Source: Candidatus Glassbacteria bacterium (lineage in GTDB: Bacteria > Gemmatimonadota > Glassbacteria > GWA2-58-10). Taken from it: a stretch of DNA of 43,750 nt. Shown here piece by piece: positions 2 through 41,030 of the stretch. The translations under genes and the position numbers were made by a program. The first letter of the stretch is position 1. Each line of letters begins with the position of its first letter. The notes under the pieces were generated by a model. The model ran no database searches, had not been told where the DNA came from, and saw nothing but the letters and a program-made list of their open reading frames with translations. The stretch covers positions 1-43,750 of the forward strand of contig JAZDIG010000253.1 of the NCBI GenBank assembly GCA_043805105.1. Direction: 5' to 3'.

Positions 2-1561
2 GCCGGACTGGAGTTCTATCAGCGAGATTCGGTTTTCTTCGGTCAGGTTCTCCGGCATTTTCGATACAATGTGGAACGTATGATCTCAGCCTGCAGAATG
101 GCTGGTATTCCGGTTCTTTTTTGCGAGCCGGTGGATAATATCAAGGATTTTTCCCCTTTTAAAAGTATGCCCTCGGCCAAACTCTCCGTCGAGGAAAGAT
201 ACGTGTTTCAAAGGCTGGTCGCCGAAGGAAAGTCACTGCTGGAGAGCAGCAGCCCCCAAAAGGCCATCGCGAAGTTCGAACAGACCTTGAAAAAAGATGA
301 ATCGGGAGCGGAAGTTCATTTCTTTCTGGGGAAAGCTTTACTTGAGACCGGTGACACCGTTCGTGCCGGAAGGGAATTTGTGGCGGCTCGCGAGCTCGAC
401 ATCTGCCCTCTACGCGCCCAGGAACCAATTCACCGGATTTTGCAGGAAACAACCGCAAGGGAGAATGTAGACCTTCTTGCCCTCCCGGAACTTTTCAAGC
501 TGAGGTCCGCTGGAGGCCTGATCGGCAACGAGCTTCTGCTGGATCATATCCATCCTTCACCGGAAGGCAATTTGCTGATAGCTCGTCAAATCGCCTTATG
601 GATAGAGCGGCAGCAGTTCATAGAAGGATTCGAGACCGCCGGGAACAAGGATATCGAAAAGCTTTACACTGAGGAAATGTCCAGGCTGGATGCGGATTAT
701 TTCAGTACCGGTCTGCTGAACCTGGCCAAGGTTCTTGTCTGGTCGAAGAAAATCAGGGAAGCCTATTCCATACTCAGTGCAAACCCGGGAATCGTCGAAA
801 GAATTGGAGAAGCCCGCTACCTGATGGGAGCCATCCAAGAGCAACTTGGCGACCGGGAAAAAGCAATCCACTATTACCGTGCGGCTCTGCAACTGATGCC
901 CGACCATAAAAACAGTATGACTTTTCTGGCCGGGCTCTACGAAACTACGGGGAGATTTGCAGAGGCTGAATCGACTTATCAGAATGCCCTTGAAAGTTAC
1001 CCCCACGATATCTATCTGCTTTGTAATTTTGCCATCATGCTGGCCCATCAGAGAAGATTCGGTGAAGCGACGCAGTATTTCAGCCGAGCTCTCTCCCGGG
1101 CTCCGCAATCGCCCACAGTCAACAATAATTTTGGCTTGCTCTATTTATTGAAAAAGGATTTTCCCGAGGCGATCGGCTTCTTCAAGAATACCCTCGCTAT
1201 CGATTCCCGCAATCAAAAGGCGCATAATTTATTAGGGTTGACTTATTTATTGATCGATAAGCCGGTGGAAGCGGAAAAGCATTTGACAGAAGCAACGCGA
1301 TTGAATCCGGAAGATGCTTCCTCCCGTGCCAACCTCGGTCACCTTTACCGCCAGACCGGCCGGATGAGCCAAGCCGAGGAGCAATACCGGCTGACTCTTT
1401 TCTTCGACCAATCCAAACCGGATAATTTCCTGAATCTGGCTCTCATCTACCGTGACATGGGTAACAAAGAATCAGCTGTAAAAGCCGCTCTGGCAGGCCT
1501 TGAACGTTTCCCCGAAGACCAGCAGCTGGTCAGATTGCGTTTGTCACTCGACGGTAAGTAA
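2..1561 (+). CDS. SGNH-hydrolase-like / TPR-repeat protein (5' partial)
   Basis: The frame of the 71..1561 ORF has no stop back to nt 2, so the true N-terminus lies outside the window. 'LLLDHIHPSPEGNLLIARQIA' resembles SGNH/GDSL block V. The C-terminal ~280 aa are repeated TPR-like 34-aa units (A..Y..AL...P pattern). Confidence 0.7.
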   Translation, partial: AGLEFYQRDSVFFGQVLRHFRYNVERMISACRMAGIPVLFCEPVDNIKDFSPFKSMPSAKLSVEERYVFQRLVAEGKSLLESSSPQKAIAKFEQTLKKDESGAEVHFFLGKALLETGDTVRAGREFVAARELDICPLRAQEPIHRILQETTARENVDLLALPELFKLRSAGGLIGNELLLDHIHPSPEGNLLIARQIALWIERQQFIEGFETAGNKDIEKLYTEEMSRLDADYFSTGLLNLAKVLVWSKKIREAYSILSANPGIVERIGEARYLMGAIQEQLGDREKAIHYYRAALQLMPDHKNSMTFLAGLYETTGRFAEAESTYQNALESYPHDIYLLCNFAIMLAHQRRFGEATQYFSRALSRAPQSPTVNNNFGLLYLLKKDFPEAIGFFKNTLAIDSRNQKAHNLLGLTYLLIDKPVEAEKHLTEATRLNPEDASSRANLGHLYRQTGRMSQAEEQYRLTLFFDQSKPDNFLNLALIYRDMGNKESAVKAALAGLERFPEDQQLVRLRLSLDGK

Positions 1562-23934: not shown

Positions 23935-26890
23935 CAGGAAGCTCCTGAGTGCGTGGGGAATACGGATATAAAGTTCCAACCTGCGTCCAGGGAAGCGGTT
24001 CACCCCCACGTGCGTGGGGAATACTTCGAGTTCATTCATCAGTTCACCGACCGATACGGTTCACCCCCACGTGCGTGGGGAATACAAGGTGAGCATGAAA
24101 AGATTTCTGGCAGTGAGCGGTTCACCCCCACGTGCGTGGGGAATACTTCAGCAGCAGTTATATAACCACTTTCTTATCCGGTTCACCCCCACGTGCGTGG
24201 GGAATACGTCCGCTGCAAAAGGATCGTCTGCCGCGATCACGGTTCACCCCCACGTGCGTGGGGAATACGTCGTGCCGGCAGAGCCGGCTCTGGATTCGGC
24301 CGGTTCACCCCCACGTGCGTGGGGAATACTTAACAATGAGCGGGATTTCCTCGCCCATTACCGGTTCACCCCCACGTGCGTGGGGAATACGTACGGAAAA
24401 ACCCTTTGAACTGAGGAAAGTCCGGTTCACCCCCACGTGCGTGGGGAATACTCTGCCAGGAGGTCCAGCCCAGGCCGGTGCTACGGTTCACCCCCACGTG
24501 CGTGGGGAATACGTGTTCGAAGATCATACCGTCTTTGCGCTTGACGGTTCACCCCCACGTGCGTGGGGAATACTCTTTCAGGACGAAATCCTTGAACAGC
24601 ATTTTCGGTTCACTCCCACGTGCGTGGGGAATACCAGTCTTTCTACTGGGGCCCTGGGGAATAGCCCGGTTCACCCCCACGTGCGTGGGGAATACTGCTG
24701 CGCCGTTAGGGCTGCTGTTGGCCCGCCCGGTTCACCCCCACGTGCGTGGGGAATACTCCGGGCGGAGTACGGTGAGTTTCTTGCACAGCGGTTCACCCCC
24801 ACGTGCGTGGGGAATACTCCACGTCCGCATGCGGAGCAAAGAGGGGAGACGGTTCACCCCCACGTGCGTGGGGAATACGTACTTGAAACTACTTTGGCAA
24901 GTCTTCCACACGGTTCACCCCCACGTGCGTGGGGAATACGTGAGTACAAGCAATGGACTCCGGTTTCAAAACGGTTCACCCCCACGTGCGTGGGGAATAC
25001 AGGTAGACGTCCACGCTGGCCCGGGTGAGCTGCGGTTCACCCCCACGTGCGTGGGGAATACGCTGGACGGGGCGGGCGTGCTGGCGGGTGGGCGGTTCAC
25101 CCCCACGTGCGTGGGGAATACGCCCTCGTCCTCGTCCTCGCTGTCGTCCTCGGCGGTTCACCCCCACGTGCGTGGGGAATACGTGAGCCGGGCCAGTTTC
25201 CGGCTCCGTGCAATCGGTTCACCCCCACGTGCGTGGGGAATACCTTGAGGCAAACTGTTCCTCGTTGATCGCGTACGGTTCACCCCCACGTGCGTGGGGA
25301 ATACCCGTTCGGCCAGCCAATATTTTCGGTAAATCCCGGTTCACCCCCACGTGCGTGGGGAATACGCTTCGAAGTTGGTATTGTCCGCCCCGTCCCACGG
25401 TTCACCCCCACGTGCGTGGGGAATACGACCGCGACCTTGCGGGGCATTAACCGAATACCGGTTCACCCCCACGTGCGTGGGGAATACTTGAGTTCCCGGC
25501 GTATCAGCTCGATCAGGAACGGTTCACCCCCACGTGCGTGGGGAATACGTGGCGTCAAGTTCCAGGGCGCGGGCCAGGGCCGGTTCACCCCCACGTGCGT
25601 GGGGAATACTAAAGGTAGCCGTGCGTCTTTTCCTGCGTCCACGGTTCACCCCCACGTGCGTGGGGAATACATCCGCGTAATCGCGACACCGGTCGAGAAC
25701 GGCGGTTCACCCCCACGTGCGTGGGGAATACGCCTGTGCCTGAGTAACCGCGACGCGAGACGGCGGTTCACCCCCACGTGCGTGGGGAATACATTTGTTC
25801 AACCATGTCCGTCGTGGTGATCCTCGGTTCACCCCCACGTGCGTGGGGAATACCTGTCACCGGCAGCTTGGAAAGCGCAACCACCCGGTTCACCCCCACG
25901 TGCGTGGGGAATACGAATCGCTCACCACGGTCACGCCCACCTTGATCGGTTCACCCCCACGTGCGTGGGGAATACTTCAGGAAAGCGTTTACTTCACCGA
26001 CCGCTTTCGGTTCACCCCCACGTGCGTGGGGAATACAAGCCCTTGCGGCGCCAGGCCGCATCGCGCGACGGTTCACCCCCACGTGCGTGGGGAATACCTC
26101 CGATTGTTTTCAGTTTCAGGTTAACTTCTCGGTTCACCCCCACGTGCGTGGGGAATACGCCAGAAAAAGCGAGAGAGGCTTTTTTAGAACCGGTTCACCC
26201 CCACGTGCGTGGGGAATACCAATCGCTATCCTGACGATGGCTGCCTGCGTGCGGTTCACCCCCACGTGCGTGGGGAATACTTGGGGGCTTCGGCCAGATC
26301 GGCGCGGACGGCCGGTTCACCCCCACGTGCGTGGGGAATACTGGACGTGGAAGATCTCTACCAGGAAGGCATCCGGTTCACCCCCACGTGCGTGGGGAAT
26401 ACAAGCGCAAGAATGAAATCCTCCAGGCGGGCGACGGTTCACCCCCACGTGCGTGGGGAATACCACTGAGCAGGATGCGCATCCTGTGATCTCCTCGGTT
26501 CACCCCCACGTGCGTGGGGAATACGATGCTGTTGACCCGCGCGGCGTCCGTGGCCCCGGTTCACCCCCACGTGCGTGGGGAATACGCTCCTCTGGAGGAT
26601 CCTATGACGGGGGAGATCGGTTCACCCCCACGTGCGTGGGGAATACCTGGGGAAAAGTTAGGACTTGGCCGGCAGGCGCGGTTCACCCCCACGTGCGTGG
26701 GGAATACCACCCTCTGGTATGTCGGCCCGCAGTACGCCTCGGTTCACCCCCACGTGCGTGGGGAATACCGATCAGGAAGTGCGGAAGATCCGCGAACAGG
26801 CGGTTCACCCCCACGTGCGTGGGGAATACAGAAAGGAACCATCGCCCAGCTTCTTGCACAGCGGTTCACCCCCACGTGCGTGGGGAATAC
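23935..26890 (-). CRISPR. CRISPR array, type I-E-like repeat, 49 repeats / 48 spacers
   Basis: The plus-strand unit CGGTTCACCCCCACGTGCGTGGGGAATAC (29 nt) recurs every 61 nt from 23996 to 26862. The only exception is one 60-nt step at 25033->25093, which gives a 31-nt spacer. The minus-strand form GTATTCCCCACGCACGTGGGGGTGAACCG has the I-E layout: CCCCAC/GTGGGG stem, 8-nt handle ..GTGAACCG. The repeat at 23935-23963 is degenerate (only the 15 nt ..gtgcgtggggaatac are contiguous), marking the old end. One variant repeat occurs at 24606 (cacTcccacg). The leader end abuts cas2. Confidence 0.97.
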
Positions 26891-26908
26891 TCTCGGAGAA
26901 TATTAGAC

Positions 26909-27184
26909 TTACGCCTTCGTTACCAGCTGAAGTCCCTCAAATTCCCTTACCTTCCGGCTGGTATCTCCCCAAGCGTCTATCTTGAAACCCTGCTCGTTAT
27001 TTGTGGTCCAGATCAGCATACAGGCACCACATTCACCAGACTTGTAGCGGACCTTATCCCATAATTTATCTCTGACCAGTGCGCTCAGATTGCCGATGAA
27101 TACTCCGCTCTTCGGCTCAATCATCCATCTGCTTAATTCTCCTTTCAATGATGGACTAACCCGTTCCAGGATCATCAGCACCAT
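26909..27184 (-). CDS. cas2: CRISPR-associated endoribonuclease Cas2 (I-E type)
   Basis: 'MVLMILERVSPSLKGELSRWMIEPKSGVFIGNLSALVRDKLW' aligns with E. coli YgbF '[41 protein letters not shown]'. ATG 27184 is preferred because GGAGGG lies just upstream. An alternative ATG is at 27196. The gene overlaps the cas1 3' end. Confidence 0.85.
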   Translation of the reverse strand: MVLMILERVSPSLKGELSRWMIEPKSGVFIGNLSALVRDKLWDKVRYKSGECGACMLIWTTNNEQGFKIDAWGDTSRKVREFEGLQLVTKA

Positions 27185-28157
27185 CTGTCCCTCCATCTTC
27201 TATTTCATCTGCTGATGGTTCCCCGCCATATCCCCTGCCCCCGGCTACCGGGCCGCGGTTTGGGTCCCACAGTCCTCCAGGGGCTGCCGGGTCGGTATCG
27301 AAATCCGGCTCGGCTGCATCATCCCGCGCCGGTGTGACATCCAGCGCGTAATCGATATCAGCCACAATCTTTTTCAGCAAGCCGCCGGCGGCGAAACTAT
27401 CACGGCAGCGGTAGCGAACTTCCCGTTCGAGGTTAGAGCTGCATTCTGCAGTGGTCTTGAATGCGACCGGTATTGTCAGGTTTACCTTGTACAAATCCGC
27501 TATGTCGTACACAAAAGACAGCTGCTTGCCCGTATGGATAAAGCCAAGTCCGGGAGAATAGCCGGCACTGATGATGGCAGCATGGCATATTCCATATAGG
27601 CAGCTGTTGGCAGCCGATAGCGCCCTGTTCACTCGGTCTGTCGCTTTCCAGTTGTTTCTCTCATAGCTCCTGCCGACCCAAGGCACGCCGGTTTCCCTGG
27701 AGGCGTTGGCATAGGCATCCCGGACCCGAACTCCTTCGCGACCCCTGATCTGCTCGATGGTCAGTGTCTCGGGCAGCGACTCCGGGAAGCGCATCCCATA
27801 CAAACGGCGTACCACCTCCAGCCGGGTGCTCCTGCGGCTGCTCAGGCTGGCTTGTTTGAGAAGGTTGTTGGCATGTCGAGTCTCACCCATTCCTGTTGCG
27901 TAAAATCTTATCCCTTGCTCGCCGCACCAAGCCACCAGGCAGCCGTTATCCGCAAGAGTCATCACTGCCGCGTGGGTTATTGTAGTACCAGGTCCAACCA
28001 TCAGCAGGCTTAGAGTAGCACAGGGAACAGGTGTAATTCCCTGCTGGTCGTGAATTGCGATGGCCTTTGTCTCCTGGTCCACCCGGCAATGCTCGATATA
28101 CATGAAGCTTAGCTTATCCCTGACCTTGGGCAGCTCGTGAAGGTCTTTTATTCTCAT
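27156..28157 (-). CDS. cas1: CRISPR-associated integrase Cas1 (I-E type) with acidic C-terminal tail
   Basis: 'LKDRVS/KVRDKLSFMYIEH', 'GPGTTITHAAVMTLADNGCLVAWCGEQGIRFYA', 'SAANSCLYGICHAAIISAGYSPGLGFIHTGKQLSFVYDIADLYK' and 'EVRYRCRDSF' match E. coli Cas1 block for block. Confidence 0.92.
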   Translation of the reverse strand: MRIKDLHELPKVRDKLSFMYIEHCRVDQETKAIAIHDQQGITPVPCATLSLLMVGPGTTITHAAVMTLADNGCLVAWCGEQGIRFYATGMGETRHANNLLKQASLSSRRSTRLEVVRRLYGMRFPESLPETLTIEQIRGREGVRVRDAYANASRETGVPWVGRSYERNNWKATDRVNRALSAANSCLYGICHAAIISAGYSPGLGFIHTGKQLSFVYDIADLYKVNLTIPVAFKTTAECSSNLEREVRYRCRDSFAAGGLLKKIVADIDYALDVTPARDDAAEPDFDTDPAAPGGLWDPNRGPVAGGRGYGGEPSADEIEDGGTDGADDPGTG

Positions 28158-28168
28158 GTTACCACCGA

Positions 28169-29095
28169 TCAGGAAGAAGGGCGGCTGGGCGCTACAGATA
28201 TCAGCCCAAATCCGAAGGCTTTGCCCGGACCGATTCCACGGATGAGGATCTCCTTCAATCGCTCGGGGTCGGTGACCCGGAGAATCCCCTCGTAGCGAAC
28301 GGAACGCGGGCGGGCCTCATCATACTTCCGTTTGTCTTCCCGCTCCTCTGTCGATCCGTTCCCCGGTTTCTTGAAATAGCTATATCCTGGTTGAACGGTG
28401 ATGAAATCCCTTTCGAGAGAGAACCCTGATATTTCAGCTTGGTGAGCAAGCCAATCAAGGAGCTTAGAGCAGATAAAGGTGCGCACATCTTCATTGGGAT
28501 TGTCGCGGTGCCATTTCTCAATCTCATCCACACTAGGCACTGGGATACGCTTGCCGTGACGTCCTTTGACTGCCCTAAGTTCATCTTTGGTATAGCCCAG
28601 GCGCTCCTTCTTTTTAATGGTGCCGATCTTTTTTGTCGGATTCGCCACAAACCGGAATCGAAGGCGCTGACCTTCAGTAAAGCAGGGATCGATTTCCTTG
28701 CACTCCCAAGGAGCCGCCAGAAGATGACTGGCGTTGTGAAAGGCATAATCCCAATCTGGTTTCTTGGCGGACTGCACGAGGATCACCACCCGGCCGCCGG
28801 GCTGCGGATCGATGCGAAATAGAAAGCCCCGGTCCACATCCCGTCGAGCGTGTACGTCCTTGAGTATTTCCTGCTCAACTTCCTTGGCGGATCGGTCGGC
28901 CAGATGCCGCTGCTCGGGGAAGTCCTCCGGGCAGTACGGAGACAGAAAGTCCCTGTCAGTGCTTTTGCGTGAATCAGACGGGAACCCCATGCACAGGCGC
29001 TGATGGACCCGGTAGAGGTTCCGCAGCCACAGCCGTCCGGGTCGTGGGCGGTCAGGGTTGTCGCCTACATCGATTGTAAGACGAGAAAGGAACAT
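28169..29095 (-). CDS. cas6e: Cas6e (CasE/Cse3) pre-crRNA endoribonuclease, enlarged (308 aa)
   Basis: 'MFLSRLTID....LRNLYRVHQRLCMGFP' and C-terminal 'YEGILRVTDPERLKEILIRGIGPGKAFGFGLISVAP' match E. coli CasE 'MYLSKVII..RDLYQLHQGLWHLFP' and 'FEGVLTINDAPALIDLVQQGIGPAKSMGCGLLSLAP'. The ATG directly follows the cas5 stop (TAAATG). Confidence 0.88.
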   Translation of the reverse strand: MFLSRLTIDVGDNPDRPRPGRLWLRNLYRVHQRLCMGFPSDSRKSTDRDFLSPYCPEDFPEQRHLADRSAKEVEQEILKDVHARRDVDRGFLFRIDPQPGGRVVILVQSAKKPDWDYAFHNASHLLAAPWECKEIDPCFTEGQRLRFRFVANPTKKIGTIKKKERLGYTKDELRAVKGRHGKRIPVPSVDEIEKWHRDNPNEDVRTFICSKLLDWLAHQAEISGFSLERDFITVQPGYSYFKKPGNGSTEEREDKRKYDEARPRSVRYEGILRVTDPERLKEILIRGIGPGKAFGFGLISVAPSRPSS

Positions 29096-30208
29096 TTATA
29101 ACTCCTTTCGCGCAGTTCTTAGCAATTTGCGCCGTTGGCCATAGCGTCGCTCTTTGAGATTGCGCTCTATCTGGCGACGTATCATCTGGCGTTGGGCCGG
29201 ATCCGAGGGATCGAGCCGCCGCCTCCGCATATCTCCACCATACTCCAGCATGGTGCAGGCATCGTGGCATGTCTTGCAAAGGGATCGAAGCCATTCATTA
29301 GTTTCTGGTTTCGAATAGTCAACATGATGCACATCTCTGGCTGGCGCCTTGCAGAATACGCAGAGGCCTTGATCGAGTTTCAGACGGTTACGCCGCGCAT
29401 CATCCCACTGCTGAGATGTATAATCGGGCCGTCGCAGATAGAGTTTGGTAGATAGATTCTGAGTCGCTTTTCCCACTGGCGCTGTGACTTGATTTGAGAC
29501 GATCCATCGCGGATCATAACTGTAGTAAAAGCCTAAAGCTCGTGGGACATCGTATGCAAGCCGTGCGCCAGTTGGAACAGAATTCCCCTTCGGGTGCTCG
29601 ATAAAAGTGTCGAGAATGACTGATGCATGCGACTGGGGGTTGTCAATGGCATCAATCCTCGGGTACCAGGGGATAGAGGAAAGAGCCTCAATAACAGTCT
29701 CAAAATGCCCGAGACCTGCAAAGACCGGCTCAGACGGGACGCAACACTTACGGCCGAGGAAGACCGGCCATTTAGGGTTTTTTACCCAATCAGCACAAGC
29801 GTTGACCGTGTCGGGAGAGCCGAGGAGCGTTATCAGAAAGGATGCATCGTACAGGTATTGGCGACGGGAAAGGAGCGTCTCGTATTCACGGGTCGATGGA
29901 GTCCTCTTGAGACCCCCGTCCTTGCCGTCTGCACGGCGTATGCCGATTTTGGCTCCAGCCGTTTGGTAATCCCAGGCCAAGCTTCCAGCACGGTCCACTC
30001 GGACTCCCATGAACAGTTCCGTAAGCGGCTTGAGATGTTGCGGAGATTCTTCGCGACTGATCCCCTTGGCACAAAGCAACATCCCCAATACGCCGGATTT
30101 GCTCGGATAGGCGTCAGTACGACGTAACTGGAAGCGTGACGAGGTTCCCCAGGACTGCATGGGACCAGCCAGGCGCAGGAACAGAGTATTGTTGTCATCT
30201 TTACTCAT
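29096..30208 (-). CDS. cas5: Cas5e (CasD) fused to a C-terminal HNH nuclease domain and Arg-rich tail
   Basis: Start taken at ATG 30208, which has GGAG 8 nt upstream and lies 4 nt after the cas7 stop. 'LFLRLAGPMQSWGTSS...YPSKSGVLGMLLCAKGI' and 'RRQYLYDASFLITL..PVFLGRKCCVP' match E. coli CasD 'LILRLAGPMQAWGQPT..FPTRSGLLGLLGACLGI' and 'REYLCDASFTVAL..TPYLGRRSCP'. After about 240 aa comes 'CVFCKAPARDVHHVDYSKPETNEWLRSLCKTCH', a CxxC..HH..N..CxxCH HNH motif. The protein ends with 'RRRRLDP..RRQIERNLKERRYGQRRKLLRTARKEL'. Confidence 0.88.
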   Translation of the reverse strand: MSKDDNNTLFLRLAGPMQSWGTSSRFQLRRTDAYPSKSGVLGMLLCAKGISREESPQHLKPLTELFMGVRVDRAGSLAWDYQTAGAKIGIRRADGKDGGLKRTPSTREYETLLSRRQYLYDASFLITLLGSPDTVNACADWVKNPKWPVFLGRKCCVPSEPVFAGLGHFETVIEALSSIPWYPRIDAIDNPQSHASVILDTFIEHPKGNSVPTGARLAYDVPRALGFYYSYDPRWIVSNQVTAPVGKATQNLSTKLYLRRPDYTSQQWDDARRNRLKLDQGLCVFCKAPARDVHHVDYSKPETNEWLRSLCKTCHDACTMLEYGGDMRRRRLDPSDPAQRQMIRRQIERNLKERRYGQRRKLLRTARKEL

Positions 30209-30212
30209 ACAA

Positions 30213-31484
30213 TTACTCCGCTCTTTCATGCGTGGATATAAGAACAGTGACTGAATGAATGAGATCATCCAGTGTGCCGACTCGTTCAGCGTTTTTGGAC
30301 TCGACCGAAGCTGGTCCTACGGCCAGAAGTACCCTGCGCATATCAGCCGGCGAGAAGGCCGCCGCGATAACCTCAACGTACTCCTTCATCGCCTTTGCGG
30401 ATTCAGTCATCAGGTTTCGATCAGTCCCGCCTTCCACAGGCTGAAGAAACGCATTGGCATAACTGAGCGGTCGCTTTGAGTTGGACACTTCGACGAGAAT
30501 TAGTTCGGGGATGGAGTGCGCGGCAAACCCACTTTGCTTCCCGGTGGGGGTTGCGTAACAGGCGGCATTAATCAGAACACCTGCCACTCGCGCGGCATCC
30601 TTGCTGCTCAGGGTTGGAAGGTGCTTCCTCAAAGCATCGACGTCAAAATTAAGATACTTATAATAAACCGCCGCGTTAAAGTACGTCTCGGTCTCACCAG
30701 AGCCGAGATACGCCGCACCGGATTTTTCAGTCTGGGTTGATGCATAACTGCTTTTCAAATCATCCATCGCAGTGAAGTAGTCGCTCTCGATAAACGTCTC
30801 GTGAGTGCTTATCGCGTGGGCAACCTGGCACGCCGCCTCAACGTTAACAACCAGATCGCTGGTTGTCATTCTTCCGAACAGGCCGATATCAACCGTTAGA
30901 GAATTGCTTGCGATGGACGCCTCCTCGATAAAATGCTTAATCGATTTATCAAGTGCCTTCTTTTCTTCCTTCGAGGGCTTTTTCCCCTGCTTGATGAACC
31001 AATCGTAGGCTGCGCGATTACTTTTTCTGAATTCGGCTATCAGCCCGGCAATGCTGTGAGCAAAGGGTGGGGGAAAGAAAACCAGTTGGGAAGTCTTACC
31101 GTCCTCATCGCCCACCGATGTCAATGTCTCGGGTTCGTCTTTTTCATCACCATCAGCCGGGGTATCCCCGGTGTCGCGGTCATCCCCCTTGAATTTCCCG
31201 GCCAATGCGTTCATGAGTTTATCTATCTCATCGCCAGGAACGCCAAGGTTCCCCTTTTTAAGTTCGTCGGCTACCATCCGCGGCAGGTATTGCGTTCTGA
31301 CCGCGAGGTCATCACCGAAAACTTCCTTGAACTGGGGTGACAGGCGAATGTTTCGCTTCAGGCATTGGCTGCTAATACGGCCACGAGTCACTCCCCCAAA
31401 CAGACATTTTTTCGGCTGTCCGGTTTCGTCACGGTTAAGATTGCCTGGCGGCATGCTCTGGAGCATATGAATCTGAACAAACAT
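30213..31484 (-). CDS. cas7: Cas7e (CasC/Cse4) Cascade backbone subunit, enlarged (423 aa)
   Basis: 'FVQIHMLQSMPPGNLNRDETGQPKKCLFGGVTRGRISSQCLKRNIR' matches E. coli CasC '[45 protein letters not shown]'. 'GLFGRMTTSD...HAISTH' matches 'ALSGRMATSG..HAITTH'. A strong SD (AAGGAGGAGG) precedes the ATG. Confidence 0.92.
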   Translation of the reverse strand: MFVQIHMLQSMPPGNLNRDETGQPKKCLFGGVTRGRISSQCLKRNIRLSPQFKEVFGDDLAVRTQYLPRMVADELKKGNLGVPGDEIDKLMNALAGKFKGDDRDTGDTPADGDEKDEPETLTSVGDEDGKTSQLVFFPPPFAHSIAGLIAEFRKSNRAAYDWFIKQGKKPSKEEKKALDKSIKHFIEEASIASNSLTVDIGLFGRMTTSDLVVNVEAACQVAHAISTHETFIESDYFTAMDDLKSSYASTQTEKSGAAYLGSGETETYFNAAVYYKYLNFDVDALRKHLPTLSSKDAARVAGVLINAACYATPTGKQSGFAAHSIPELILVEVSNSKRPLSYANAFLQPVEGGTDRNLMTESAKAMKEYVEVIAAAFSPADMRRVLLAVGPASVESKNAERVGTLDDLIHSVTVLISTHERAE

Positions 31485-31513
31485 GAGAACCTCCTCCTTT
31501 AGTGAGTGGAACT

Positions 31514-33139
31514 TTAAAGCAGTCGATCAAGGCTAAAACAGAGGCCCGCCCAGTCGACTTTTTCTGGCATTCGCCGACGCATATTACTGTCGAGGGCGCT
31601 ACGAAGAGCGGCTTCCAGTCTTTGGCCGCGCGGGAATGAAACCGGGTACGGTGAATGGAAAGTTCGGCCCTGGTGGCGCTCGTCAGGTTGTCGCCTCAGC
31701 AATGAGCGCAACAGACAGAAAGTAGCATCAGCACGAGGAATGCGGGCGCGAGAGGGTACAGCGGCCATGAGCTTTAACACCAGCCACGCCACGTTTGGCG
31801 AAGGAAGCCCTTTTACAGTCCGGCGCAGCGGCCAGAGCAGACCAGTCAGGATGTCGAAAGCCGCTGGAGATTCTTGCATCTCCAGGTATGCGGCGGATGA
31901 CAATACAACCCAATCCGAATGCATGAGATGCCGAACCGCCGACAGTACAAACCGCTCTGAACCAACAGAACGAGATTTCTGTAGTGGTATCTTCCATCCG
32001 TCGAATCCCGTGGGTTTGTTATCAGGTTGCTTATTGTGAAGCATGTCCAGGGAAGGGTTAGTCAATTCAAGCTGTCGATGATCAAATGTCTTGTTATCAC
32101 TACCTGTGCAGGGAATTACCAAGTACCAAGACTGGTGGTCAGGATTTTGCACACAAACAGCCGCTTTAAAATCCGCACCCGAAAAGAGCAGGTCGCAGTC
32201 TTTCACAGCCAGCTCCTCACGCGTGCTTTTCATCGTCTTATAAGGATTTCCTTCGGTGTAAAAGGCTGCGGGGTCTTTCCACATAAAGGACTTTTTATCT
32301 GGGGTCTTCTTTGTCTCCTCGTTCTTCATATACACTATCGACTCGACTACGCTGCCGGGTTGGCCGCATCCCCAGCAGATTTGCGTGTTTTGAGACAATG
32401 AAAGTCGGATGCGCCTGGGGTTCCATGTAAACGCCTCCATATAAGGAATTGCTCTATCCTTAGCGGTTGGCTTAAAATAACCAGTCCACATTGGAGTGCC
32501 TGCAACACCGGTAAGGGGAACGAGATTAAGGCCAAGCGTGTTCGCCAGGTTGTTCCCGGAGGCGATTGCCACTATCGGAGGAGCACCGTGTATGGAAGGA
32601 GTCAGTCCTTGGCCGCCTGATTGGGTCCACGGGACGATACGGAGCATGCCGATTGTCGCACACCGCAAGCAAAGGCGCATGTTTTTGTCGTCACCGTGAT
32701 GAAAATGAGCGATGTTGCTGCCAGTCGCGAACTCGGCGAACAATGAGCCGACTGACTTGATTGTCGAGGTTTTCCTTTGAGCAGAAGGGTCTTGCAGAAA
32801 TGGGGCTGTTTCATCAAACATTCTGAAGTAGCCTTCTTCTTTTTCAATGGACTCAAGGACTTCTTGCGGCACTTCATCCCTTAGCAGCGATCCGCGGACT
32901 TTTTGCACCCCTCCCGCTTCATCAGCCTTCCAATAAAGCAGTGTCAGAAGAAAACGGTGTGCAGAAAAAAAATCGAGGGGACTCGCGAAAGCAAGGCAGT
33001 GCATTTCTCTTGCCCTTCTCAATGCATCCAGTGGAGAGTAGACCATCTCCACGGCATATTGATTAATCAACTTCAACCATGGGCTGGTAAGAACATTCCA
33101 GTTCGCTCCCTGGCAGAATTCTTTCACTGTATCAGACAT
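31514..33139 (-). CDS. cas8e: Cas8e (Cse1/CasA)-like large subunit
   Basis: First gene of the operon, about 541 aa from ATG 33139 (GGAG 6 nt upstream; the track's TTG 33169 is less likely). The N-terminal 'NVLTSPWLKL....SPLDAL....ASPLDFFSAHRFLLTLLYW' follows the Cse1 N-terminal pattern (N-L-[IL]-x-x-x-W-[IL]-P-V ... hydrophobic LL..L). The remainder was not matched to a motif from memory. Confidence 0.7.
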   Translation of the reverse strand: MSDTVKEFCQGANWNVLTSPWLKLINQYAVEMVYSPLDALRRAREMHCLAFASPLDFFSAHRFLLTLLYWKADEAGGVQKVRGSLLRDEVPQEVLESIEKEEGYFRMFDETAPFLQDPSAQRKTSTIKSVGSLFAEFATGSNIAHFHHGDDKNMRLCLRCATIGMLRIVPWTQSGGQGLTPSIHGAPPIVAIASGNNLANTLGLNLVPLTGVAGTPMWTGYFKPTAKDRAIPYMEAFTWNPRRIRLSLSQNTQICWGCGQPGSVVESIVYMKNEETKKTPDKKSFMWKDPAAFYTEGNPYKTMKSTREELAVKDCDLLFSGADFKAAVCVQNPDHQSWYLVIPCTGSDNKTFDHRQLELTNPSLDMLHNKQPDNKPTGFDGWKIPLQKSRSVGSERFVLSAVRHLMHSDWVVLSSAAYLEMQESPAAFDILTGLLWPLRRTVKGLPSPNVAWLVLKLMAAVPSRARIPRADATFCLLRSLLRRQPDERHQGRTFHSPYPVSFPRGQRLEAALRSALDSNMRRRMPEKVDWAGLCFSLDRLL

Positions 33140-33170
33140 TTGACACTCCATCTGATTGATCACTGGCAAC

Positions 33171-33413
33171 CTAATTGCCGGTAAGTTTGCTTGTGCGGCC
33201 AGTTAAATCTCCTTCTCTGCATAAGTTATCTTTACACCAGTAGAGAAGCGCGAGCAGGAACCGGATAACCGCAAACCGGTCCATCGGATTGGACGCAGCC
33301 ACCTGCCGTATCCGGCCAGCTTGGGTGAGTGCCTCCATGATTCCCACCCTACTGTTCTTTCCATCGGCCCACAGAACGGGAATCCACTGCTCATCGAGCA
33401 AGTTGTAGCTCAA
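33171..33413 (-). CDS. 80-codon ORF encoding a second, more canonical Cas8e N-terminal segment (fragment or possible pseudogene)
   Basis: 'SYNLLDEQWIPVLWADGK..GIMEAL....ASNPMDRFAVIRFLLALLYW' is a canonical Cse1 N-terminus (compare Thermus 'FNLIDEPWIPV'). It aligns without gaps over 60 aa to residues of the downstream full-length Cas8e. TTG start with AAGGAG 6 nt upstream. It ends at TAG 33171-33173, in a different frame from cas8e. Confidence 0.45.
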   Translation of the reverse strand: MSYNLLDEQWIPVLWADGKNSRVGIMEALTQAGRIRQVAASNPMDRFAVIRFLLALLYWCKDNLCREGDLTGRTSKLTGN

Positions 33414-33840
33414 GAGGAACTCCTTTCTGGCCTGAAGGTATTGGATAAGAACTCAAGGTCTTAAATGAACAATCAAGGTCAACCTCTTTTCATTCGTCCT
33501 ATTCACCTCCTTATTGCCAGATCGCTTTCATTCAGGCCGGGTAGTCCAGCATTACGACTCAGCTTGCCGAGTGATTCCATCATCAAGAATGCCGGAAAAT
33601 AAGCGATTATCGATCAGGAGAAGTCTGAGGGGGATAATTTATTATATAACGTATATCGTGATAACGCTATGCCTTGCGATGGAAAGTCTACTGATTAGAT
33701 TAATTGTATGCCATTTGCTGTCTTTTTACACAGTCTTGCTTGATTTATATCTTAATAAAAAGAAGTTTGTTGAGAATAATTCCTTGTATTCGCTTGTTTT
33801 TTCCCCTGAAGCAAATAAATCAGCCAGCAAAGGACGAAAA

Positions 33841-34392
33841 ATGAACGCCAAACTATCAGTTGACCCCAAGAAACTGAAAGACGCATTAAAGAAGATCAAA
33901 CTGTCAGACCGCAGATTTTCAGTGGGAGAGGCGGCTTTTTCTTTCAATGATGGCTGGTTGGAATTACAGGCACAAGGAGTTTCAGTTCAAATCACTGCCT
34001 CTGGAACCTGGCCCGGAAGGGTGCGAGTGAGCTTGTACAATCTCAGACCAATGCTTTCACATCCGCCGAAGGAAAATCCTTTGCTTATTCGTTTCCAGGA
34101 CGACCTTTTGTTTTTCGGTTCGTACTCTGTTTCTGCCCAATGGGAGGATATCAGCCCGCAGCCAGAATTAATTCCGATGGGCCTGTCATGGGTAGAGCTG
34201 TTGAAGCTAAGGTTCGAGTATCCAGAAGCGGCACTGATAAGCTCGGGAATGGCCCCAAAAATCGCTATGGCCGAGAAAAAATTTGAAATCAGGATTTCCA
34301 AAGCTGCGGCTCTTCTGGTCGAGACGGGAGTTAAGGAACAGGATCTGATGGAATTGGTTGTAGGTAAATTGGGAGAATCAAAAAAACGTTAG
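33841..34392 (+). CDS. Hypothetical protein (183 aa)
   Basis: The track ORF 33514..34392 starts at TTG inside an AT-rich, low-complexity stretch. ATG 33841 ('MNAKLSVDPKKLKDALKK') is the first plausible start. No family recognised. Confidence 0.5.
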   Translation: MNAKLSVDPKKLKDALKKIKLSDRRFSVGEAAFSFNDGWLELQAQGVSVQITASGTWPGRVRVSLYNLRPMLSHPPKENPLLIRFQDDLLFFGSYSVSAQWEDISPQPELIPMGLSWVELLKLRFEYPEAALISSGMAPKIAMAEKKFEIRISKAAALLVETGVKEQDLMELVVGKLGESKKR

Positions 34393-34550: not shown

Positions 34551-34991
34551 ATGTGCGCAATGAGCGAATTGCTGCGAGAAAACGAGTTGCCGGACAACCA
34601 GCGGGCCAAAGCACTGTACGAGAAGGCGACCAAGGGGGAGCGGCCCGACCCACGCTTCCTGTACGCCCTGGCCCTGGCGTTGCTCCCGGTGAACGAGGAA
34701 CTGGAGAAAATCAGCCAGCGCCTGGAGGACTTCCTGTTCAACGTCCTACTCCAGAAGTCGGAGGCGGACTACCAGGCGCTGATGTGGAGCATCCTGCTAA
34801 ACATCCCGAAGGACGAGGCGGGGGAACCGGGGCAGCAGGAGCCGTTCCTGGTAGACCCGCAGGAGAAAAACCCGTACACGGCGGCCTACAGCCTACTGAC
34901 GTTGGTGGCCGAGCGCCTGAAAAGCCTGAATCCGTCAGTAAACCCACACGTCTGGAAACGGGACGAGCTGCTGGAGCTGGGGCAGCGATAG
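34551..34991 (+). CDS. Hypothetical protein (143-146 aa)
   Basis: 'MSELLRENELPDNQRAKALYEKATKGERPDPRFLYALALALLPVNEELEKI' looks like a real helical protein. The overlapping 34544..35014 frame is Pro/Gly/Ala-rich and is judged an artefact. The start could be ATG 34560. Confidence 0.5.
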   Translation: MCAMSELLRENELPDNQRAKALYEKATKGERPDPRFLYALALALLPVNEELEKISQRLEDFLFNVLLQKSEADYQALMWSILLNIPKDEAGEPGQQEPFLVDPQEKNPYTAAYSLLTLVAERLKSLNPSVNPHVWKRDELLELGQR

Positions 34992-35126: not shown

Positions 35127-35750
35127 CTACATTTGATCTTGAGCGCCATTTCTCACAATCTCCAATCCCTGCTTTTTCCGGTGGGCGTCCAGCCGCTGTT
35201 GAGCCAGCTCCAGTTGCTTGCCCAAGTCAGGCCGCTCTTCCTTGCGCGCCTTGTCGATAAACTTGCCGAGCACCCGGCCGTAGAGCTCCAACGCCTTCTC
35301 CTTGCTCGCGAATGACAGCTCCATGCGCTCTTCCACAGCCTCCCCGAGCTTGGTCGGGTAGCGCCGCACGGTACGCCGCACGCTCTTGATCGCGGCCGCC
35401 GTCTGGTCGTCGATGTCGGCGCTCGACTTGAAGGTCACGCCGGCATCCGTCCACTCGACGGCACGGCGTATATCGAACACGCACAGCCGGGCCAACTCCT
35501 GCATCCAGCGCTCAGAGTCCAGATCGATCTTTTTCAGTAGCTTGGTAGTCAACTCATTGATGCGCGCGCGAATCTCAGGTTTTTTCAGCAGTCTATTAGC
35601 AAGTGTCGCTGCCGAATTGCGTGCCAGATGCGACCGCAAATCCAAAGCAGCCACGGTTCCGTTGCGTTTCTGCTTGAGGTACTCGTGGCAGAATTCTTCC
35701 TCGAAACTACTCAATCCACACTTATTGGTTGCATGATCTTGCGTTGACAT
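35127..35750 (-). CDS. Phage terminase small subunit (Terminase_2 / P27-like)
   Basis: 'FCHEYLKQKRNGTVAA...SAATLANRLLKKPEIRARINELT....ERWMQELARLCVFDIR' matches the terS pattern F[C]xEYLxxxNxTxAA...A...LLxxPxIxxxI...vlxELaxIAFxD. ATG 35750 is preferred; the track's start at 35771 is a TTG. Confidence 0.75.
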   Translation of the reverse strand: MSTQDHATNKCGLSSFEEEFCHEYLKQKRNGTVAALDLRSHLARNSAATLANRLLKKPEIRARINELTTKLLKKIDLDSERWMQELARLCVFDIRRAVEWTDAGVTFKSSADIDDQTAAAIKSVRRTVRRYPTKLGEAVEERMELSFASKEKALELYGRVLGKFIDKARKEERPDLGKQLELAQQRLDAHRKKQGLEIVRNGAQDQM

Positions 35751-36125
35751 ATTTGCATCCCTTCTTATCAAATTTTAAGCGCCAACTTATCAAAACCTTA
35801 CCGGTTTTGGTAATTTCACCCTGATAGCTTAGTTATCTGAATGTGTACATCTTGATCTTTCTCTCTAATTCATGCAGTCTACATACTTCTGCCCCTTTTG
35901 TTCAATCTTGTAGGAATTGAAATTAGTAGTCGCAAATGTCGAACAAAGAATTAATTCAGTCTCCACAATAGACGATTACTTTGCCAGACCTTGCCAAAAT
36001 CCATGTGAATTCTTGGCAATCTTGTGAGTTCTTGACAATCGACCCGAAAACGAGCAAATGCGGCAGCCATGCGGCTTTGGGTTTGTTTTCAACAGGTTAC
36101 GAGTTTTCTAATAATACCATAACTA

Positions 36126-38794: not shown

Positions 38795-39275
38795 GGCGCT
38801 GTTGTGGAAATGGCGATGAATACTGGATATGCACTTGCTTTTCTACCTGTTAGCGATACACTTAAGTAGTAATTGATTCGACCGACAGAAAGGAAGAGCA
38901 TGCCTAACCGGTTTACCCATGAAGAAGCAGCGCAGTACATCAAGATAGGCAGGCGTGGCGGTTCTATTTGAATAAGTAGGCCTATGGCTCAGGGCAGGGA
39001 AGTTGGAGAAAAAGGCAAACAACACATATTAGGGAATGACTTATGAGCGAAGGAGCGAACATTAGGCAAGCCTGGAATGCCTTGAGAGCAACCTTCCAGA
39101 CACCAACTACCGATTTACTTTTAGAGTCATATATGATACGCTACTTCGAGAGGTAGGGACTCAACGTAATACCTCGTTTGGCTGTTCAATTCAACGTCAT
39201 TGATCGAAACAGCTTGGCAGCTTAATCGCAACTTAGCTAAATTATTGGAAAGTTTGATCAGAATGAGAATAAAGA

Positions 39276-39920
39276 ATGCCATTTCCCAAAATTGGAACAA
39301 TTGAAGCTTTTGCAATGATAGTTGATATAAATGGCTTTACGCCGATGGTATCAAAGTCGACAAAAAGTGACTGTGTCGCTCAATTTGTCAGAGATGTTCT
39401 ATCGGGGGGCGTTTGCATTGTTGAAAAAAACGGTGGTTTTGTCACTAGTTTCATGGGCGATGCCTTTTTAGGCATATTAGATAACCCTGATTCAGTTTTT
39501 ATGTCATGTGTAGGAATAGCTAAAGATCTTGATCGGCAGTGCGAATATATATCTAACCATCAGAAGGAATATCTCAATGATTTGCATTATGTTAAAGGTG
39601 GAGCGGGATTAAAAATCGCAATAGAATATGGTTGGATAGACATTTCAACTATCTATAGTGACCTGCTCGGAGAACAAAGGTTGCTAATTGGGCCACCTAT
39701 TAATTATGCAAGCCGGATTTTATCAGTTGGAGTAGGAAATAGGTGTCTCGTCGGACCAGAAGCAATGAATAATCAAGGGATGAATCAATGGAACAATAAT
39801 GGACCTTATTCTGTAATTGTTAAGCCAAGCGAAGGCGATTTACTATATTGGGAACTGGACTTAGGAGATATTTGGAGAGAAGGAATAATTGAGAATGATG
39901 AGGAAACATATTGGGGATAA
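39276..39920 (+). CDS. Stand-alone class III nucleotidyl cyclase catalytic domain (214 aa)
   Basis: 'AFAMIVDINGFTPM' supplies the first metal Asp, 'GGFVTSFMGDAFLGIL' the second, and 'IGPPINYASRIL' the Asn/Arg of the N-x-A-S-R motif. These occur in the order and spacing of adenylate/guanylate-cyclase-type domains. No sensor or TM domain. The gene sits in an AT-rich islet. Confidence 0.7.
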   Translation: MPFPKIGTIEAFAMIVDINGFTPMVSKSTKSDCVAQFVRDVLSGGVCIVEKNGGFVTSFMGDAFLGILDNPDSVFMSCVGIAKDLDRQCEYISNHQKEYLNDLHYVKGGAGLKIAIEYGWIDISTIYSDLLGEQRLLIGPPINYASRILSVGVGNRCLVGPEAMNNQGMNQWNNNGPYSVIVKPSEGDLLYWELDLGDIWREGIIENDEETYWG

Positions 39921-40005
39921 AGTGTGATCTTTCTAATCTAATACATCTGACTCAAGCTTTGTTGTACTTCACGCAATATACCTTAATTTAGAGGCTATAA
40001 CTACT

Positions 40006-40815
40006 ATGAATTTCTCAGAGATTGAAAAAGAAGTAATTTACTTAAGAGCCGTTAAGGAGATTGTGGACTCAATGGTGAATTATGAGGTGCTTAATTTAAT
40101 TGGAAATGATCCTGATTCAGAAATTAGATTTAAATCGAGTATACACCAGAAATTTTTCAATATTATTTTGGTGGATTTTTTTTCGTCCCCAGGTAAGAAA
40201 TTTATTATAAAACAGCAGCCATATTTAGAAATCCTATTTTTGATATGCCAGAAACCGAACTTCAACGAAAACGGGTCTATTAATAATCTTGTATTGTCAG
40301 TTGAAGAGTTTAAAAATTGGCTTGAGCAGGAAATTAAAGAGGAGATTTGGTTGCCTTCAATAGAAATGAATGGAGTCTTGTCACTAAAAAGAATTGAGTT
40401 TTTAAAAATATGCGGAAATATTTCAAAACATAATTTTACTAGATTGTCTATTGCAGTGAAGCAGCTTGAGCAGATTTTTAAAAGAAATAAGTTAAGTATT
40501 GATTGTGAAGACGCCTTGCTTATTCTTGATGAATTTTACGAGATATATCATACAGATATTTTCAATTATCTCGGTAGTACTATTGCTGAGTTTCTTAATA
40601 ATATTAGATGGGGTATATATTATTATCTCCAGCCAGAGTTTTCGCGCTCAATAAAATGGGAGAGTGGAGATCCGCCAAAATATAAGTATACATACCCAAA
40701 GGGTTTAATAAATAAGTTTGCAAAAAGTTGCTATTTGAAGTTGATGAATGAAGTACGTAGTGAACCATACATGAGAAAATTCAAAGTTACAGAGATATTG
40801 AAACTAAGATATTAA
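40006..40815 (+). CDS. Hypothetical protein (269 aa), partner of the cyclase
   Basis: AT-rich ORF 85 nt downstream of the cyclase on the same strand. No TM segments, TIR, cNMP-binding (FGE..RxA) or canonical HEPN R-x4-6-H motif recognised. 'ICGNISKHNFTR' is only HEPN-reminiscent. Confidence 0.55.
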   Translation: MNFSEIEKEVIYLRAVKEIVDSMVNYEVLNLIGNDPDSEIRFKSSIHQKFFNIILVDFFSSPGKKFIIKQQPYLEILFLICQKPNFNENGSINNLVLSVEEFKNWLEQEIKEEIWLPSIEMNGVLSLKRIEFLKICGNISKHNFTRLSIAVKQLEQIFKRNKLSIDCEDALLILDEFYEIYHTDIFNYLGSTIAEFLNNIRWGIYYYLQPEFSRSIKWESGDPPKYKYTYPKGLINKFAKSCYLKLMNEVRSEPYMRKFKVTEILKLRY

Positions 40816-41030
40816 GCTATAAGGATAGGGAAATTAAGTGTGCTTGACAGGCCTTAGTCTGACAGTTCATATTTGACTGGCTATATCAAATTTAGCATCG
40901 CTTACCGCTTCCCTCACAAAAACTTGTATTCTCTCAAAATTTATGGTATGATAATTAAAATCGGATTCATTCGGCAAGACGTTTTAAATGGCGTTATGCC
41001 TTACGCTTCAACAAGTTAAAGGTTTATTAT

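Follow-up and report, generated by a model that had tools for sequence, protein, structure and literature searches.

A Cas5-HNH type I-E CRISPR-Cas locus with a fused Cas8-Cas11 subunit in Candidatus Glassbacteria

How a CRISPR-Cas system of type I-E may cut DNA when its operon carries no cas3 gene, and an HNH nuclease domain is attached to its Cas5 subunit instead, is the question raised by a locus of Candidatus Glassbacteria. The locus lies on a contig of 43,750 bp (JAZDIG010000253.1) from a metagenome-assembled genome (MAG); the window analysed is this whole contig, and every contig-level search described below refers to this one contig. It comprises cas8e, cas7, cas5-HNH, cas6e, cas1 and cas2 followed by a CRISPR array, all on the minus strand, with the six cas open reading frames (ORFs) intact (Table 1). 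An initial annotation, made from the sequence alone, had described an operon without cas3 and cse2/cas11 in which Cascade itself would make the cut, and had asked whether it belongs to the published lineage of HNH-bearing Cascades or is of separate origin. The present analysis indicates that this is probably a complete adaptive type I-E variant of the published Cas5-HNH kind, representing a sub-variant whose Cas8 carries Cas11 as a fused domain and, by homology, cutting DNA with its HNH domain independently of Cas3. The mechanism of such systems has been known since 2023 and their structure since 2024-25, and the locus adds no new category.

Relationship to the published Cas5-HNH systems

The Cas5-HNH protein of the window aligns with that of Candidatus Cloacimonetes in the PDB (8yb6_A, E=6.7e-69) over residues 26-383 of a 390-amino-acid (aa) ORF, and the alignment spans the Cas5 body, the linker and the HNH zinc finger, CxxC...HH...CxxCH. 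The linker motif RRPDY pairs with R275, D277 and Y278 of the Cloacimonetes protein, the catalytic histidines H310 and H333 of the latter correspond to H295 and H315, and both CxxC pairs (C283/C286 and C311/C314) are kept. Residues C283, C286, H294, H295, C311, C314 and H315 are invariant across 28 aligned homologues. The HNH domain is matched by an HNH hidden Markov model (HMM) at E=8e-41; Pfam, searched at E<=10, barely detects it (E=0.56). The closest solved relative of Cas6 is the Cas6 of the HNH Cascade (8yb6_B, E=2e-48), that of the Cas8 N-terminal domain is Cas8 of the HNH Cascade of type I-E (8yb6_J, E=1e-29), and Cas7 gives a near-tie between 9uer_E (4.0e-45) and 8yb6_D (4.8e-45). Since Cas5, linker and HNH domain align end to end, the question of origin can be answered: the locus belongs to the published Cas5-HNH lineage and did not arise separately. 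Glassbacteria is not among the organisms named in the approximately 80 related loci retrieved.

The Cas5-HNH system was discovered by Altae-Tran et al. 2023 (PMC10910872). Its Cascade cuts double-stranded DNA precisely, in a manner dependent on the protospacer adjacent motif (PAM) and without Cas3, and both collateral cleavage of single-stranded DNA and editing in human cells have been demonstrated (PMC10910872). Mutations of the HNH catalytic residues abolish activity (PMC10910872; PMC11794572). Cryo-electron microscopy structures were reported by Zhang et al. 2024 and Liu et al. 2025 (PMC11794572; commentary PMC11822464), and the Cloacimonetes Cas5-HNH Cascade is represented in the PDB by entries 8YB6, 8YHA, 8ZLU and 9JXS. 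In the solved complex the HNH domain occupies the place of the second Cas11, between Cas6 and a single Cas11, and the substrate channel is built by HNH and Cas11 together (PMC11794572; PMC11822464). Homology to a system of demonstrated mechanism supports, by analogy, the earlier proposal that the Cascade encoded here would cut through its HNH domain and need no Cas3.

The locus shares with that of Cloacimonetes ADurb.Bin088 a C-terminal HNH domain of Cas5e of common origin, with the same linker motif, zinc-finger and histidine residues, homologous Cas6e, Cas7 and Cas8 N-terminal domains, the absence of cas3, and 29-nucleotide (nt) repeats and 32-nt spacers of type I-E. It differs in that the Cas11 homologue is fused to Cas8, where it replaces the C-terminal bundle, with no stand-alone cas11; in the tryptophan found at the essential D324 position; and in a Cas8 devoid of an N-terminal extension of about 60-70 residues. 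With canonical type I-E systems (E. coli, T. fusca, T. thermophilus) it has in common the Cas8e, Cas7e, Cas5e, Cas6e, Cas1e and Cas2e families, the gene order, the repeat shape and the 5'-handle sequence, but it has neither Cas3 nor a free Cse2 dimer, and Cascade itself contains the nuclease. The Cas5-HNH homologue that has been studied makes a precise double-strand cut, in contrast to the processive degradation by canonical type I-E. The type I-F1 Cas8-HNH system of Selenomonas sp. (Hirano et al. 2024, PMC11459484) likewise replaces Cas3 by an HNH domain inside Cascade, but its origin is independent: there the HNH is inserted in Cas8f in place of its helical bundle, in a four-gene effector with Cas5f, Cas7f and Cas6f, whereas here it is carried by Cas5e and all subunits are of type I-E.

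Each of the six cas products matches its own type I-E family in both Pfam and NCBIfam (Cse1, Cas7/CasC, Cas5/CasD, Cas6/CasE, Cas1e and Cas2e), which bears out the type I-E assignment of the initial annotation. The operon order and the tight spacing that it gave are also right, with ORFs intact at the positions described: 29 nt separate the cas8 stop (31514) from the cas7 ATG (31484), 4 nt the cas7 stop (30213) from the cas5 ATG (30208), and 0 nt the cas5 stop (29096) from the cas6 ATG (29095). The cas1 and cas2 genes overlap by 41 nt, and the cas8 reading frame extends open upstream as far as a TTG at 33169. A scan for promoters and terminators returned no more sites than in shuffled sequence.

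Absence of cas3

Pfam scans of 20 further long ORFs of the contig revealed no HD or helicase domains; the domains detected were of TPR, transporter, TonB-receptor, esterase, glycosidase, MgtC and small-terminase types. A Cas3 HMM was built from ten cas3 genes located directly upstream of cas8 in canonical type I-E loci, in which the HDLGK, APTGEGKT and DEVH motifs are present, and a search with it of all six-frame window ORFs of at least 50 aa gave nothing at E<=1. Both searches thus agree with the initial annotation that no cas3 is present in the 43.75 kb, of which 10.3 kb lie upstream of the Cas8 fragment preceding the operon and 23.9 kb past the array. The canonical type I-E signature, cas3 together with a stand-alone cse2, is absent from the contig.

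To place the locus among its relatives, 80 genome loci were gathered with a Cas5-HNH profile, and 57 of them were classified as having a fused or a stand-alone cas11. In none of these 57 loci, some of them on contigs of 1-4 Mb, was an intact cas3 present within 10 kb. In canonical type I-E loci, cas3 abuts cas8 on its upstream side in all 13 cases that could be checked (in two of them split over adjacent ORFs). Remnants of cas3 were found beside three Cas5-HNH operons: a 227-aa fragment of the helicase region (locus L014, 10-693), an HD piece joined to the Cas8 N-terminus (L079, 1734-3815) and an 80-aa HD piece (L047, 5129-5371). A Chloroflexi Cas8 match (P0060) contains Pfam PF18019 besides Cse1 and fits the HD-Cas8 fusion of L079. 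The three remnants are snapshots of cas3 loss, in agreement with a published remark on its progressive loss (PMC10910872).

Fusion of Cas11 to Cas8

The operon contains no stand-alone cse2 ORF, and to this extent the initial statement that cse2/cas11 is missing holds; a Cas11 homologue is nevertheless encoded, as residues 390-541 of Cas8, fused to the C-terminus of that protein. When these residues were compared by phmmer with all PDB sequences, the sole match was Cas11 of 8YB6 (E=5.5e-6), and a profile of 24 family members again matched 8YB6 Cas11 (E=2.2e-10) and no other PDB sequence. The hhalign comparison of the fused domain with the stand-alone Cas11 of related loci gave 97.9% (E=5.9e-13, 144 columns), against 0.3% for the fused domain and the Cas8 C-terminal part of loci having a stand-alone cas11, and 0.1% for stand-alone Cas11 and the Cas8 C-terminal part of the same loci. 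A Pfam search at E<=10 gave no Cse2 match for the C-terminal domain of Cas8.

Structure prediction with AlphaFold2 (AF2) points in the same direction. In the Cas8 model a disordered linker is predicted at residues 369-389, with the predicted local distance difference test (pLDDT) score below 50 at residues 369-379. A Foldseek search with the whole Cas8 model returned Cse1 structures (E down to 7e-17, with high root-mean-square deviation) and was unable to separate the Cse1 C-terminal domain from Cas11, so the isolated domain was modelled and searched apart. It is predicted to adopt a confident helical fold (pLDDT 89). Its first Foldseek match is Cas11 in 8yb6_K (probability 1.0, template modelling score 0.6, 160 of 165 residues), followed by weak matches to Cse2 of T. 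thermophilus and M. ruber, and no Cse1 C-terminal bundle is among the matches. From the profile, hhalign and Foldseek results it follows that the protein consists of a Cas8e N-terminal domain and Cas11 and has lost the ancestral helical bundle of Cas8e; a length of 541 aa suits two domains rather than three.

Residues W46 and R49 of Cas11 are needed for activity in the solved complex (PMC11794572). W46 aligns with an invariant tryptophan of the fused domains and R49 with an arginine present in at least 90% of them, and conservation extends to the residues of the Cas5 linker in contact with Cas11; given that these counterparts are kept, the tethered domain would play the same role in flanking the HNH. 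That cas8 is sometimes fused to cas11 is mentioned in one sentence of the discovery paper (PMC10910872), and no characterisation of the fused form came up in a literature search.

Distribution among related loci

The fused type accounts for 35 of the 57 classified loci. Their Cas5-HNH proteins are at least about 47% identical to that of the window, and at least 52% in all but L034, and the fused Cas8 is mostly about 520-570 aa long, with a few longer proteins of up to 767 aa. In the other 22 loci, which have the Cloacimonetes-type layout and a Cas5-HNH 32-43% identical to that of the window, the Cas11 HMM matches a separate ORF of 145-219 aa directly after cas8; measured by tblastn, loci retaining a stand-alone cas11 show 36-43% identity to the window's Cas5-HNH. 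The fused type occurs in Planctomycetota, Verrucomicrobiota, Chloroflexota, Acidobacteriota, Nitrospinota, Desulfobacterota and now Glassbacteria. The six-gene layout of the window is found in Anaerobaca lacustris, on one metagenomic contig of 1.1 Mb and in MAGs from many phyla, and more than 120 protein clusters contain a full-length Cas5-HNH at 59% identity or more.

A four-protein fused effector is thus the common layout among relatives of this locus, and the five-protein form is the only one studied. Cas5-HNH Cascades attract interest both as genome editors of type I that are compact and precise and, because of their collateral cleavage of single-stranded DNA, as diagnostics; with the fused effector one gene fewer has to be delivered, and a structural question arises, namely how the belly is constructed without the Cas8 helical bundle. 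The replacement of a Cas8 domain, the change of D324 to tryptophan and the conserved cas8 remnant upstream are modest points of interest of the locus itself.

Two kinds of departure from these layouts were seen. In two Planctomycetes loci (L062, 3888-5810, and L064, 9980-11887) Cas5-HNH is about 640 aa long, with about 260 extra aa at its C-terminus, and no Cas11 homologue was detected there, either fused or free; these may represent a further sub-variant. Four loci of the fused type (L006, L015, L023 and L025) have the array right after cas6, without cas1-cas2, and are effector-only copies.

Proposed mechanism and alternative explanations

By analogy with the solved complex, which is also the basis for the assembly, stoichiometry and cleavage activity suggested here, Cas6e would cut the precursor of the CRISPR RNA and stay bound to its 3' hairpin, Cas5 would cap the 5' handle, and approximately six Cas7 subunits would cover the 32-nt guide. 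The PAM would be read by the Cas8 N-terminal domain. On formation of a full R-loop the HNH domain, tethered to the Cas5 C-terminus and placed as in the solved complex at the inner belly between Cas6 and Cas11, would nick both strands at the PAM-distal end, and the Cas3 helicase-nuclease would be dispensable. The Cas11 unit that forms the HNH channel would be the Cas8 C-terminal domain, held on a flexible linker some 20 residues long and replacing the four-helix bundle of Cas8e, so that the belly would have two units, the Cas11 domain and HNH, rather than three. It is conceivable, and is put forward here as a tentative idea, that with such a covalent tether the belly holds the Cas11 domain and HNH only, that PAM reading and R-loop completion are mechanically coupled to the opening of the channel, and that the mini-ORF upstream of cas8 is perhaps functional. 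If true, this would make a more compact four-protein effector, gated differently from the solved five-protein complex.

Several observations weigh against the reading of this locus as an active, Cas3-independent HNH cutter, and one of them concerns the HNH domain itself. At its 'N' position, four residues ahead of LC in the motif LxxLCxxCH, the window protein has Trp306 (TGG codon at 29293..29291, context ETNEW-LRSLC) where a conserved aspartate is reported to be essential: in the Cloacimonetes enzyme the corresponding change D324A abolishes cleavage and D324N weakens it (PMC11794572). Of 118 close homologues, 74 have D here, 36 have T, 2 have N and 2 have E, and W occurs in the window copy only. 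Judging from these residues the window copy could be a weak or dead nuclease, and with W306 in place of the essential D324 the nuclease activity of this copy is not assured. One may then consider a DNA-binding or attenuated Cascade, with intact targeting and an impaired HNH, serving for binding or silencing or being on the way to decay; a simple sequencing error would not account for the tryptophan, as GAY to TGG takes three base changes. We regard this as unlikely. The homologues with threonine form a subclade with a 3-residue deletion, and the spread of D and T means that the 'N' residue is less fixed in the clade than the structural paper implies; the remaining catalytic residues and zinc ligands are intact, and the long, near-perfect array with unique spacers beside intact cas1-cas2 suggests a system under selection. 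The intact genes, the 47 perfect repeats out of 48 and the all-unique spacers likewise argue against a decayed remnant, the option that the initial annotation had named as a possible refutation. The natural D324-to-W and D324-to-T variants lend themselves to testing how far that residue is essential. Further points against the main reading come from the spacers and from the extent of the data. No protospacer was found when the whole array was compared by megablast with 50,697 GenBank phage records, or when spacers 1-3, with every sixth base wild-carded, were searched against IMG/VR; outside the array the window contains no match to any spacer, nor did 83 loci yield a convincing one, and no PAM could be inferred. 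For the fused form, the two-unit belly is an inference.

The negative result for cas3 covers one contig of this MAG, and a cas3 encoded in trans may be considered. A canonical Cas3-dependent type I-E system, with cas3 on another contig of the MAG and HNH as an accessory, would agree with the fact that one contig of 43.75 kb of the genome was available. It is nonetheless extremely improbable, given that canonical loci keep cas3 directly upstream of cas8, that related Cas5-HNH loci have at most decayed remnants of the gene nearby, and that the homologous complex cleaves DNA without Cas3 (PMC10910872). The two-unit belly proposed for the fused effector has a competitor of its own, in which free Cas11 is still made by initiation within cas8 and the belly has the usual number of units. 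In types I-B, I-C and I-D, Cas11 is encoded in the 3' part of cas8 and made from an internal start codon, and McBride et al. in 2020 are said to have described this internal translation in the same three types. The layout here is alike in that the large-subunit gene ends, on its 3' side, with sequence homologous to Cas11, and the Cas11-like domain is predicted to fold confidently as a discrete module after a disordered linker. In the window, however, no ATG, GTG or TTG occurs in the 26 codons before the Cas11-like domain, and the nearest ATG, at codon 366, is without a Shine-Dalgarno sequence; across 33 related loci the linker contains no conserved in-frame start or Shine-Dalgarno sequence, unlike the situation in types I-B, I-C and I-D. 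A separately translated Cas11 was rejected on these grounds, and internal initiation is considered very unlikely.

Table 1. Features of the cas operon and the CRISPR array in the window
Feature	Position	Strand	Evidence or remark
Cse1 N-terminal fragment, 80 codons	33171..33413	-	Pfam Cse1 positions 1-57, E=2.6e-15
cas8e (Cas8-Cas11 fusion, 541 aa)	31514..33139	-	ATG 33139 = NCBI start
cas8e N-terminal domain, residues 1-368	32036..33139	-	Pfam Cse1 E=8e-30
Cas8 linker, residues 369-389, low confidence	31973..32035	-	AF2 pLDDT
Cas11 (Cse2)-like helical domain, Cas8 residues 390-541 and stop	31514..31972	-	
cas7e (casC), 423 aa	30213..31484	-	Pfam Cas_CT1975 E=9e-92; TIGR01869 242 bits, cut-off 178
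cas5e-HNH, 370 aa	29096..30208	-	TIGR01868 E=1.5e-43
Cas5 body, residues 1 to ~255		-	
Cas5 linker, residues ~256-267		-	
Cas5 HNH domain, residues ~268-345	29407..29174	-	
cas6e (casE), 308 aa	28169..29095	-	Pfam CRISPR_assoc E=8e-40; TIGR01907
cas1e, 333 aa	27156..28157	-	TIGR03638 E=3e-114, 381 bits, cut-off 216
cas2e, 95 aa	26909..27196	-	Pfam Cas_Cas2CT1978 E=1.8e-29; TIGR01873
CRISPR array	23935..26890	-	48 repeats, 48 spacers

CRISPR array

The array is built of a 29-nt repeat, GTATTCCCCACGCACGTGGGGGTGAACCG, of which 47 copies are perfect and one differs at a single position, against 0 copies expected by chance. No spacer is repeated; 47 are 32 nt long and one is 31 nt, and a half-degenerate terminal repeat closes the array at 23963..23935. 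The repeat has the form expected of type I-E, as the initial annotation had proposed, with CCCCACGC..GTGGGG as its stem and GTGAACCG (...GAACCG) as its 3' handle, and from this stem and handle it follows that array and cas genes share one reading direction.

Only 18 nt (window 26891-26908) lie between the cas2 stop and the first repeat, so that any leader signals must overlap the 3' end of cas2. Gaps of 7-20 nt between cas2 and the repeats are typical of both Cas5-HNH clades (L002, L007, L010, L011, L013, L048, L049 and L053, for example); some related canonical type I-E loci (L067, L074) also have a short gap, while in other canonical loci it measures 57-210 nt. In many related loci the sequence ...TTTTCAGT stands directly ahead of the first repeat, and it is not present in the window. 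By analogy, Cas1e-Cas2e would add new spacers at the cas2-proximal end of the array.

Upstream cas8 remnant and flanking regions

The Cas8e fragment noted upstream of cas8e in the initial annotation is confirmed as a Cse1 N-terminal sequence. It forms an 80-codon mini-ORF with a TTG start and AAAGGAG 7 nt upstream of it. The mini-ORF is 31% identical to the resident Cas8 and 62-68% identical to the Cas8 N-termini of loci with a stand-alone cas11 (L049, L046, L040), a pattern which identifies it as the 5' remnant of a different cas8e and not as a duplicate of the resident gene. Three of 33 related loci have such a remnant immediately upstream of their fused cas8: the window, L006 (2119-2406) and L012 (1648-1821). 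The three differ in length, spanning the first 50-90 residues of a Cas8 from loci with a stand-alone cas11, and their junction is conserved (..ATGGAGTNNCCCATGTCYGATAC). The remnant marks a replacement, in which the fused gene took the place of a cas8 of the stand-alone-cas11 type.

Over the first 50 codons of the three remnants the proportion of synonymous differences (pS) is 0.70-0.95, that is saturated, and the proportion of nonsynonymous differences (pN) is 0.15-0.29. On the basis of the three fragment-fragment pairs and comparisons with L046, the ratio of nonsynonymous to synonymous substitution rates (dN/dS) is about 0.09, from the one pair with estimable dS. A low pN against a saturated pS is unexpected for the debris of a single event, and by these codon comparisons the remnant looks conserved. 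In this small sample, the remnants possibly represent independent events, or the mini-ORF is possibly selected as a peptide or as a leader for translational coupling. Metagenomes commonly contain short proteins like this: among the best 150 matches from a scan of 1.8 billion representative proteins, 33 measure 135 aa or less, and each of these begins with the same 50-70 residues, after which the tails are unrelated.

The description of the region further upstream as mobile-element debris finds no support, as an orphan small-terminase gene and unannotatable ORFs are located there. The phage small terminase (35127-35771, on the minus strand) lies 1.7 kb upstream of the cas operon and matches Pfam Terminase_2 (2.6e-20) and PHROG 51. 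The ORFs beside it, 33514-34392 and 34551-34991, both on the plus strand, have no Pfam or PHROG match, and comparison of the operon-flanking ORFs with PHROGs assigned no function except that of the small terminase, with no other phage genes recognised nearby. At about 39000-41000 the GC content falls to 0.32-0.385, compared with about 0.55 elsewhere; the ORFs of this low-GC island (39276-39920 and 40006-40815) have no Pfam or PHROG match, and the island is probably foreign DNA.

Two proteins of the operon contain additional acidic segments. The C-terminus of Cas1e (window 27156-27340, minus strand) has an acidic, glycine-rich tail of about 60 residues that extends past the Cas1e model, and Cas7 (window about 31000-31200, minus strand) carries an acidic low-complexity insertion, ...GDDRDTGDTPADGDEKDEPE....

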